A stretch of 64,000 bases of DNA from a virus. Its lineage: Duplodnaviria; Caudoviricetes. The stretch lies in the IMG/VR virus record IMGVR_UViG_3300020371_000002; one strand, 5' to 3'. The notes under the pieces were generated by a model. It saw only the letters and a program-made list of their open reading frames with translations, was not told the origin of the DNA and did no database searches. This document shows, one piece after another, positions 48,279 through 50,015 of this stretch (its first letter is position 1; every line of letters begins with the position of its first letter). The translations under genes were made by a program, and so were the position numbers.

Positions 48279-48321
48279 AAAAAATGGGGTCCGAAGACCC
48301 CGATTGCACTTCCTTCACACC
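48279..48321 (-). ncRNA. Candidate ~43-nt small RNA
   Basis: TTGCCA-17-TATAAT (48327-48355) fires into GGGUGUGAAGGAAGUGCAAUC followed by a C(UUCG)G terminator and U-tract; no ORF. Confidence 0.65.
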
Positions 48322-48344
48322 CTGACATTATATAGAGAGAAAGA

Positions 48345-50015
48345 TCACTTGGCAACTAAGTTATAACTTGGAAACCACACATAATCTAGGTTTGATCCGT
48401 GCAATGTTCGGAGGGCTTCGTCGGGCGTTTCAACCAGGGGTTCACCAGCCAAATTAAAGCTAGTATTAAGAAGAATCCCAATACCTCGGCGAGATTTGAT
48501 CTCTGTGAGGAGTTCATAAAGTAAATGCCCTTCTCTAACAGTTTGGATTCTGCAGGACCCATCTTCATGGACAATGCCTTGAAAAGTAAGTCTCCACTCC
48601 TCCTTAATTTGAAAAGAGTTTGTCATAAACTCATTTCTCTCTAAGTATAACATATCAAAACATGTTTTGGCATCTTCTTCCAGAATAATTGCCGCAAAGG
48701 GACGATACCATTCACGTTTCTTAATCTCATTAACTATATCCTTCGCAGAAGGATTAAAAGCATTAAAGAGAATAGATCTGTTACCTAATGCACGTTGTCC
48801 TGCTTCTGCTTTACCATAATATACTGCAACTGATTTATCATTATCCAAGAGATCAGCAACACCAGAGGTATCATACTGCCAATCAGATCCCTCTTTCATA
48901 CTAAAATATACATCTTCTAGATCATAATCATATCCATGAAAGAAAGTATCTTTGAGTGGATACTTATTCGTATCACCAGTTTCATTCTTATATGAATAGA
49001 TACAGGCACCAATAGAGTTGCCAGTATCATCTGCAATCGGTTCAAACCAAAACTTACATTCGGGCATCAACTGTACGAGGTAAGAATTGGTAACAATATT
49101 CATCCCATAACCACCAGTTACGATGATATTTTTAATACCTGTTTTAGTAGAATAGTAATCAATACATTTGAAGACTTCTTCCTGAGTCTGATTCTGTACA
49201 TGCTTGGCATAATCTGCATGTAGAGTATCTTCGAATGTAACCTCGTTTGTGGTATATTCATGAAGTTCTCTATTCATTACTGGTTTTACATGGGATCTAG
49301 CATAATTATCCAGATCAAAATATGAATCATGAGGAACTAGGAATACATCGGGGTCTAGACAGTTCACAAATAGGTCAGGAAACCCCTCTGGATGACCGTA
49401 GGCAGAGAGTCCCATAGTCTTTCCATTCTCTAGTGGGTGTTCGCCAATCAACGTTGTGGCGGACTCATAGACCATAGTGGCATTGAACTTACTACGAACA
49501 ATATGTTTCGTCTCTGGTCTAACTTGTTTCAGATACTCTAAAACTTCTTGAATCTGATGTGATGAAAAGTCTGACCAATAGTTTTTATAGATTTCTGTGA
49601 ACGTATATGGATCTCTGCGAGCAACCATAACAGTCTCCGACTCGCGACAAACGCCACCAATCTTAGATCCATTCCTATCAGCAACAAAGATAAGTGCCTC
49701 ATCAAAACCACTGTTCTCAAATGCCAGTGCAGCATGACTCATGTGATGATACTCGTCCATATCAATCACTGGACACTTAAATAATCTTTCCGCAAGAAGA
49801 TCGACACTGAATATACTCCTACCGTCTGGAGAGGCAATAACACAAAGATCCACAGGACCCATAAGTGTCTTTTGTGCCTCAATCATGGCAAGATATGGTT
49901 TAGACTCTTTCTTAATACCACAGAGTCTCTCTTCTTTAAAGAAATATTCTATTTCCCCATCATTATAAACACAGACCGATGAATCATGACTCGGACTGAT
50001 ACCAACAATTCTCAT
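48345..50015 (-). CDS. O-carbamoyltransferase (NodU/CmcH/TobZ family)
   Basis: HD..EER, HHMSHA, GKTMGLSAYG, DTGNSIGA, RALGNRSIL, REWYRPFA, DGSCRIQTV, LLNTSFN. Confidence 0.95.
   Translation of the reverse strand: MRIVGISPSHDSSVCVYNDGEIEYFFKEERLCGIKKESKPYLAMIEAQKTLMGPVDLCVIASPDGRSIFSVDLLAERLFKCPVIDMDEYHHMSHAALAFENSGFDEALIFVADRNGSKIGGVCRESETVMVARRDPYTFTEIYKNYWSDFSSHQIQEVLEYLKQVRPETKHIVRSKFNATMVYESATTLIGEHPLENGKTMGLSAYGHPEGFPDLFVNCLDPDVFLVPHDSYFDLDNYARSHVKPVMNRELHEYTTNEVTFEDTLHADYAKHVQNQTQEEVFKCIDYYSTKTGIKNIIVTGGYGMNIVTNSYLVQLMPECKFWFEPIADDTGNSIGACIYSYKNETGDTNKYPLKDTFFHGYDYDLEDVYFSMKEGSDWQYDTSGVADLLDNDKSVAVYYGKAEAGQRALGNRSILFNAFNPSAKDIVNEIKKREWYRPFAAIILEEDAKTCFDMLYLERNEFMTNSFQIKEEWRLTFQGIVHEDGSCRIQTVREGHLLYELLTEIKSRRGIGILLNTSFNLAGEPLVETPDEALRTLHGSNLDYVWFPSYNLVAK

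Follow-up and report, generated by a model that had tools for sequence, protein, structure and literature searches.

What is the function of a short promoter-to-terminator unit that encodes no protein, set between two genes of a cyanophage? The question arises from the 64,000-nucleotide (nt) stretch of IMG/VR record IMGVR_UViG_3300020371_000002 (the window, by which we mean the whole stretch that was analysed), which comes from a T4-like cyanomyovirus (Kyanoviridae) with a G+C content of 39.5%, and in which such a unit lies on the minus strand between a Nol-like carbamoyltransferase gene and a gene resembling gp135 of phage Syn9. An initial annotation had proposed that the unit is a stand-alone small RNA (sRNA) that acts as a sponge for the cyanobacterial sRNA Yfr1. 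Our results uphold the kind of element proposed, a putative small, non-coding RNA that probably acts by base pairing and is conserved in many cyanophages, but not its named partner. Instead, the partner is likely to be a host transfer RNA (tRNA), tRNA-Val(CAC), to whose anticodon arm the invariant part of the predicted RNA is exactly antisense.

The anatomy of the unit was found as first described. Specifically, a sigma-70 promoter (TTGCCA-17-TATAAT) is present where it had been placed, at the end of the carbamoyltransferase gene, whose stop codon (TGA, 48347-48345) is overlapped by the promoter region; it matches the consensus at 11 of 12 positions and is the top-scoring site between 46.5 and 50.5 kb. 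The predicted transcript reads GGUGUGAAGGAAGUGCAAUC, then GGGGUC-UUCG-GACCCC, then A-UUUUUU, and is predicted to fold into an unpaired 5' stretch of 20 nt and a single hairpin (-12.3 kcal/mol). Fold, terminator and open reading frame (ORF) scans confirmed the proposed layout of ~20 nt of single strand and a C(UUCG)G terminator with no ORF, there being no minus-strand ORF of at least 30 amino acids (aa) between 48264 and 48344. The single strand contains a 13-nt motif, GUGUGAAGGAAGU, that is separated from the hairpin by GCAATC and recurs elsewhere in the window just as sites with two mismatches, at chance level. No terminator was seen in the window between the carbamoyltransferase gene and the motif, and the unit had no match in Rfam (Rfam 15), either at gathering scores or at E<=10. 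The CTAAATA box past the terminator is likely to serve the next gene as its late promoter, as such boxes do in T4-like phages; it is invariant and lies within 1-4 nt of the terminator in all eight isolates found by BLAST, and motif-less phages have it behind their gp23 terminator as well. An 11/12 promoter alone is not rare, as the whole window holds eight sigma-70-like sites with at least 11 of 12 matches, compared with 3.2 (maximum 8) in shuffles, a number that hints at several early promoters; the case beyond chance is therefore the conservation of the unit.

Conservation in cyanophages, which had been suggested as a check, proved extensive. BLAST searches with a 141- or 61-nt query recovered the unit in ~258 cyanophage records, for which the host, where named, is always Synechococcus, and a pattern scan of IMG/VR recovered it in at least 120 contigs. 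Isolates with the unit represent at least five Kyanoviridae genera (Ormenosvirus, Tefnutvirus, Nereusvirus, Nerrivikvirus, and Leucotheavirus), with MS29 as a further lineage that has no genus assigned. In an alignment of eight divergent isolates, GTGTGAAGGAAGT was 100% identical, while the flanks had diverged. Further, we compared 77 distinct copies, from isolates and IMG/VR contigs, among the matches listed (at least 120), and the counts given below for copies refer to this set. The 13-mer was invariant in all of them, while hairpins, spacers, and promoter types varied: 63 distinct hairpin sequences were present, each followed by a T-run, and 2-8 variable nt separated the 13-mer from the GC hairpin. 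The predicted RNAs had a median length of 45 nt, based on per-sequence folds, which were used because RNAalifold on a MAFFT alignment gave a poor consensus, the hairpins differing in length. A -10-like box mostly lies 8 nt before the motif and is of the sigma-70 type in 42 copies (36 with TGn), of the late type (TATAAATA or CTAAATA) in 24, and weak in 11, such that a predicted sigma-70 or late-type box precedes 66 of the 77. The nearest IMG/VR relative of the window phage keeps the unit with one spacer change, and wherever copy number could be checked, there was one per genome. The element thus has the hallmarks of a stand-alone sRNA gene, namely, a predicted promoter at a fixed distance, an intrinsic terminator, no ORF, and a conserved unpaired seed.

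The genomic settings of the element are varied. In 43 of the 77 copies, the -10 box starts at the stop codon of gp23, the major capsid gene (..ATG TGA TATAAT..), which means that the motif there belongs to the 3'-terminal part of the gp23 mRNA as well. In a few copies (S-M1 and L095), a terminator stands ahead of the promoter, leaving a free-standing gene. In the IMG/VR contig L113 (3884-4014, minus strand), the motif begins 3 nt past a phage gene for tRNA-Thr(UGU), such that the small RNA could be released by 3' processing of that tRNA instead of arising from a promoter of its own. In the lineage of the window, the element is found downstream of a phage tRNA/transfer-messenger RNA (tmRNA) cluster. 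Phages without the motif have the gp23 stop, a terminator, CTAAATA, and nothing more; the hairpin and CTAAATA are therefore generic, and the specific insertion is the -10 box together with the motif. The functional part is probably the purine-rich 5' single strand, acting by pairing with a host RNA.

Which host RNA this might be was addressed by searching 301 host-family genomes with the exact complement of the motif, the family having been reached via a Prochlorococcus locus that matches the published MED4 Yfr1 (PMC2190773). The complement, ACTTCCTTCACAC, was present in 189 of the 301 genomes, nearly always as a single occurrence, compared with 14 of 301 for a reversed control pattern and a chance expectation of ~0.08 per genome. 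At all 30 loci that were fetched, it sits in an identical 72-nt gene with unrelated flanks, and ARAGORN identified this gene as tRNA-Val(CAC) in six of six cases. The 13-mer complement corresponds to tRNA positions 26-38, which take in A26, the 5' side of the anticodon stem (CUUCC), and all of the anticodon loop (UUCACAC). As it is the sense strand of the tRNA that holds the complement, the tRNA and the predicted phage transcript are antisense to each other. The arm does not vary across ~190 genomes, apart from one C26 variant, for which reason covariation with host tRNA variants is not possible. Letters outside the search pattern also match the tRNA: among the 77 copies, C is found at -1 in 64, C at -2 in 53, T at -4 in 52, and G at +1 in 67, tRNA-complementary letters that are favoured in an AT-rich setting; C is found at +2 in 33. 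Contiguous complementarity ranges from 13 to 20 nt, with a median of 16 (15 in the window).

The predicted energies single out the same tRNA. The duplex of the 13-mer with tRNA-Val(CAC) was computed at -22.3 kcal/mol, a value reached by none of 5000 shuffled and none of 5000 random 13-mers. When all 43 tRNAs of one host genome were set against the motif, Val-GAC came second at -14.0 kcal/mol and all others were at -10.7 kcal/mol or weaker; the arms of phage tRNA-Val(UAC) pair with the motif 6-11 kcal/mol more weakly than does host Val-CAC. Near-matches elsewhere in five complete host genomes were at control level, and across 76 gp23-downstream regions compared with host tRNAs, no tRNA other than Val-CAC was matched over at least 13 nt. 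The box ~8 nt upstream, of the -10 or late type, and the L113 layout alike would have the RNA start with the complementary stretch. Taken together, these results lead us to regard tRNA-Val(CAC), with good confidence, as the probable partner for which the pairing was selected.

The distribution of tRNA-Val(CAC) matches that of the element. The tRNA is mostly found in host-family genomes of ~2 Mb or more and is absent from five Prochlorococcus-like genomes (1.3-1.8 Mb), which carry just Val-GAC and Val-UAC. Correspondingly, no Prochlorococcus-phage record was among the ~258 BLAST-matched records, and scans of the whole genomes of MED4-213, P-RSM1, S-PM2, ACG-2014f, and S-CAM3 did not find the element. 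Codon usage differs strongly between the two parties, with GTG accounting for 51% of Val codons in ORFs of the host loci (31 per 1000), compared with 6.6% in ORFs of the window (5.2 per 1000). Further, tRNA-Val(UAC) is among the 5-7 tRNAs of each of four complete element-bearing isolates (Syn9, S-RIM2, S-IOM18, and ACG-2014b) and is also carried by one 99%-complete IMG/VR contig, while a BLAST-detectable homologue was present in one of five element-less phages. The features of the unit in the window are collected in Table 1.

Table 1. The antisense unit of the window and its immediate neighbours (positions are those of the window)
Feature	Position	Strand	Remarks
-35 box, TTGCCA	48350..48355	-	Overlaps the last codons and the stop of the carbamoyltransferase gene; kept in the nearest IMG/VR relative (G001)
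-10 box, TATAAT	48327..48332	-	17-nt spacer from the -35 box; 6 nt (GTCAGG between) before the invariant motif
Predicted RNA, ~43 nt	48279..48321	-	Start predicted from the -10 box, end from the U-tract
Invariant 13-nt seed, GUGUGAAGGAAGU	48308..48320	-	Exact antisense of host tRNA-Val(CAC) 26-38; in 8 isolates and 77 listed copies
GC extension of the complementarity	48306..48307	-	Pairs with C25 and G24; 15 contiguous nt in the window phage
Terminator hairpin, GGGGUC-UUCG-GACCCC	48286..48301	-	Followed by A, then the T-run
U-tract of the intrinsic terminator	48279..48284	-	TTTTTT
CTAAATA box	48269..48275	-	Directly past the terminator; context, outside the RNA
Downstream gene, 64 aa, Syn9 gp135-like (phrog_1461)	48069..48263	-	ATG at 48263; context
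Upstream gene, Nol-like carbamoyltransferase, 556 aa (phrog_1601)	48345..50015	-	Context

How might such an RNA act? In the mechanism that we propose, the RNA would be made from its own promoter and, in many relatives, the motif would additionally be carried at the 3' end of the abundant gp23 mRNA. Pairing could nucleate on the seven anticodon-loop bases (GUGUGAA with UUCACAC) and then extend along the 5' side of the stem to A26 and C25, displacing the 3' strand of the stem. The resulting duplex of 13-20 bp would bury the anticodon, and tRNA-Val(CAC) would be withdrawn from translation through titration, while nucleases might also attack the duplex. Because GUG is the main Val codon of the host and rare in the phage, and because a phage-encoded tRNA-Val(UAC) is usual, the loss would hit host translation more. 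From sequence comparison and modelling, we infer that infected cells produce the RNA, that it pairs there with the tRNA in its folded and modified state, and that it slows the host's translation more than the phage's. Our confidence in the parts of this proposal is uneven. We lean towards the view that an RNA of ~43-45 nt, often also serving as the gp23 3' untranslated region, pairs with and inactivates host tRNA-Val(CAC), with a host-biased slowing. That the outcome is specifically a host-biased inactivation of this tRNA we would put close to an even chance, if anything just below it. More tentative still, and short of even, is the picture of a dedicated viral antisense RNA against the Val-CAC anticodon arm that removes the tRNA and imposes a codon-specific handicap on the host, with the phage using other tRNAs, including its own tRNA-Val(UAC).

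Several observations weigh against tRNA inactivation and need to be set beside the evidence in its favour. First, the anticodon stem must open, whereas the Yfr1 motif is unpaired, and the net cofold gains predicted for the window RNA are therefore close (-17.4 kcal/mol for the tRNA versus -15.1 kcal/mol for Yfr1), in nearest-neighbour energies that ignore modifications, tertiary structure, and bound proteins; by this model, the gain over Yfr1 would be just slight. Second, tRNAs are abundant, such that titration would need a very abundant RNA, which would be plausible for a gp23 3' end. Third, GUG may also be decoded through wobble by the tRNA-Val(UAC) of the host, a reading on which Prochlorococcus must rely, and the effect may therefore be partial. 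Fourth, the promoter types suggest no single timing, the window promoter being sigma-70-like and early-looking and many others late-type. Fifth, low GUG use is not special to phages with the element, GUG making up 9.1% of Val codons where the element is present and 8.3% in contigs that lack it; cyanomyoviruses rarely use any codon ending in G, whether or not they have the element, and codon use thus does not explain why Val-CAC should be the target. Sixth, no tRNA-Val was seen in the closest relative of the window (G001, 69% complete), and the co-occurrence of the element with tRNA-Val(UAC) rests on few, related genomes. Finally, in a gp23-anchored IMG/VR sample, the exact motif was found in just 3 of 76 regions. 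No version of the motif with one to three mismatches was found together with a terminator, either in these 76 regions or in five element-less phage genomes, where near-matches were intracoding. The element is hence accessory, yet all-or-none.

Among the alternatives, the one that survives best keeps the partner and changes the purpose. Pairing with tRNA-Val(CAC) could shield it from anticodon nucleases, direct its cleavage into functional fragments, or render GUG a hungry codon at which the decoding of particular genes would be altered by pausing or frameshifting. The same complementarity speaks for such roles as for inactivation, a more specific role is conceivable in that codon use does not single out Val-CAC, and tRNA-cleaving defences and phage countermeasures are common (e.g., PMC11464382, PMC11555353). 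Set against this, a phage that hardly uses GUG would have little need to protect the tRNA, a paired anticodon cannot decode, and neither a nuclease gene nor a recoding site was tied to the element in the contexts that we examined. We regard pairing to such other ends as unlikely, if worth keeping in view.

Less probable again is a cis-acting 3'-end element, in which the purine tract tunes the termination, stability, or processing of the upstream mRNA (gp23 in many relatives, carbamoyltransferase here) and the tRNA match is incidental. The 43 copies that directly follow a gp23-type stop without an intervening terminator would suit such a role, as would the fact that the hairpin and CTAAATA are the ordinary gp23 terminator and next-gene promoter of phages lacking the motif, and AAGGAAG pairs with the U-tail in some predicted folds. 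However, a cis element leaves unexplained the invariance of the 13-mer, its tRNA-complementary flanks, and the -10 box that travels with it, as well as the copies that have their own upstream terminator (S-M1 and L095) and the copy that abuts a tRNA gene. Moreover, we estimate the chance of a 13/13 match to an anticodon arm at ~1 in 10,000 or less (~2,700 tRNA positions, from 43 tRNAs, over 4^13).

The initial annotation had itself raised a further alternative, a purine-rich decoy that would be bound by a phage or host RNA-binding protein or, as a Shine-Dalgarno-like site, by the 3' end of 16S ribosomal RNA. The motif does contain AAGGAAGU, which is Shine-Dalgarno-like and one mismatch away from AAGGAGGU, but the A that breaks the Shine-Dalgarno match is itself invariant, as is GUGUG, which has no anti-Shine-Dalgarno partner. 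Further, the flanks follow the tRNA and not the 16S 3' end, and no candidate protein was identified; a decoy is accordingly quite improbable.

The Yfr1 sponge, in which the RNA would titrate host Yfr1 and derepress som porin mRNAs, fares slightly worse and must be considered very improbable. Both the conserved motif of Yfr1 and its targets are established (PMC2190773, PMC2796815), and the pairing that had been described is arithmetically right: 11 bases of the unpaired Yfr1 motif pair with the phage RNA, with two bulged As, and the net gain is -15.1 kcal/mol, part of which is due to a 5' GG that is specific to the window. The 13-mer alone pairs with MED4 Yfr1 at -13.1 kcal/mol with its two bulges, a value equalled by 421 of 5000 shuffled motifs (8.4%) and 125 of 5000 random 13-mers (2.5%). 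We found no contiguous, above-chance pairing to the unpaired Yfr1 sequence ACUCCUCACAC, and the perfect complement GUGUGAGGAGU is absent from all copies. Both of the bulged As are invariant, for which the Yfr1 pairing offers no explanation, whereas the tRNA duplex pairs them with U32 and U28. The ranges disagree as well. Nearly all cyanobacteria have Yfr1, high-light Prochlorococcus among them (PMC2190773), and we detected it in 18 Prochlorococcus genomes, which would call for the element in Prochlorococcus phages too; where a host is named, the element was found just in phages of Synechococcus. By energy alone, a secondary interaction of the RNA with Yfr1 is conceivable. We also considered the opposite strand, which could be read as a Yfr1-like RNA (a 5' hairpin followed by ACUUCCUUCACAC), and rejected it, as that strand lacks a promoter or T-run in every copy.

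Finally, a DNA-level site, such as a core for attachment or recombination that the phage has in common with the tRNA-Val gene of the host, can be given almost no weight, for although tRNA genes are used by many integrating elements and the identity does lie inside one, it spans 13-20 bp with ragged ends and covers at most positions 24-44 (the D-stem side and the anticodon loop, not the 3' half of the tRNA that an attachment block would cover), its orientation is fixed relative to promoter and terminator, no integrase is adjacent or otherwise present in the annotated neighbourhoods, and T4-like cyanomyoviruses are lytic.

If tRNA-Val(CAC) is the partner, how does the element relate to known systems? 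Phages are known to produce anti-sRNAs and RNA sponges, such as AgvB and AsxR of prophages of enterohemorrhagic Escherichia coli, and a further sponge is 3'ETS-leuZ. The phage element resembles these in its short transcript, unpaired conserved 5' seed, intrinsic terminator, and proposed titration of an abundant host RNA, but differs in that its partner would be the anticodon arm of a mature tRNA and in that no chaperone site is evident. We know of no bacterial or phage sRNA with a conserved seed antisense to a tRNA anticodon arm, and our literature searches returned neither a bacterial or phage sRNA, or other phage RNA, that pairs with a tRNA anticodon nor a similar cyanophage sRNA. Hence, judged by its sequence, the element is a candidate antisense sRNA with a new class of target.

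T-box leaders offer a second comparison, as they also read a specific tRNA by Watson-Crick pairing with its anticodon, just upstream of a terminator. In contrast to these, the element has no Stem I, T-box sequence, antiterminator alternative, or Rfam hit (E<=10); only ~20 nt precede its terminator, with no conserved alternative pairing, and its downstream gene has a promoter box of its own past the terminator. Further, a T-box pairs over 3-4 nt, while the phage element would engage the whole loop and a stem strand, over 13-20 nt.

Loss of host tRNAs during infection is a third. In T4 infection, tRNA-Leu of E. coli is cleaved, and Yang et al. (2021; cited in PMC11726456) reportedly described a case in which a phage depletes host tRNAs and replaces them with its own. 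The proposed likeness is that a tRNA for a host-preferred codon would be disabled while the phage supplies tRNAs of its own; the known cases, however, involve protein nucleases or general RNA decay, whereas here the specificity would reside in an antisense RNA.

Two other non-coding RNAs (ncRNAs) share features of layout with the element. Yfr1 is alike in size and arrangement, with an ultraconserved unpaired motif beside a terminator hairpin, to which the phage motif is an imperfect complement; the phage element is not homologous to it, however, lacking the 5' stem-loop and having another motif and a different distribution (PMC2190773). The cyanophage manA RNA (RF01745) is located in the same place, immediately past the gp23 terminator, but is ~190 nt long, structured, and unrelated in sequence, and the window element does not match RF01745. 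We identified manA RNA with 120-191 bits at L063 2784-2970, L065 2768-2967, L258 1085-1272, and L277 2768-2969 (MED4-213, P-RSM1, and two IMG/VR contigs). The position past gp23 thus seems to be a preferred site for phage ncRNAs.

The window holds further features of interest. A permuted tmRNA of the cyanobacterial type (RF01851, 145.5 bits; 50531-51256, minus strand; ARAGORN tag AKPSDVAANNIVAFSRTRELATA) lies among genes for tRNA-Ala(UGC), tRNA-Thr(UGU), and tRNA-Leu(UAA), 2.2 kb upstream of the element; an identical tmRNA is present in the nearest IMG/VR relative, and one with a single tag difference in the element-bearing contig L117. A phage tmRNA so near a putative anti-tRNA RNA might clear ribosomes stalled at GUG, and the two could possibly cooperate in this way. 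Comparing all 43 host tRNAs with the window returned, besides Val-CAC, matches of at least 13 nt that were either phage tRNA/tmRNA antisense or chance-level hits in ORFs, with 2.75 such 13-nt anti-tRNA matches expected in shuffles. One of these, TCCTTGGCAAGGA (61812-61824, plus strand), is antisense over 13 nt to the anticodon arm of host tRNA-Gly(GCC); it is nearly palindromic, lies inside a minus-strand ORF, and falls within the chance number of hits. Another, AGGGGATTCGAAC (34124-34136, plus strand), is antisense over 13 nt to the T-arm of host tRNA-Glu and tRNA-His and could be due to chance or be the remnant of a minus-strand tRNA gene. The gp135/gp136-like operon ends in a second clean intrinsic terminator (47294-47310, minus strand), shortly ahead of a 2260-aa ORF (40464-47246, minus strand), which, like a 3059-aa ORF at 4864-14043 (minus strand), probably encodes a giant structural protein.

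tRNAs are a main battleground of phages and bacteria. To our knowledge, all known attacks on tRNAs between the two are made by proteins, and every known RNA regulator of similar length targets an mRNA, an sRNA, or a protein. If the proposed pairing with tRNA-Val(CAC) is true, it would extend the targets of regulatory RNAs to a new class and amount to an RNA-guided inactivation of a host tRNA, providing a new, sequence-programmable route to host takeover. It would further bear on why cyanophages retain particular tRNA genes, and the element could be a possible marker of host range, separating Synechococcus with tRNA-Val(CAC) from Prochlorococcus without it. Lastly, it would give a function to a conserved ncRNA slot beside the gene that is expressed most strongly in marine viruses of ecological dominance.

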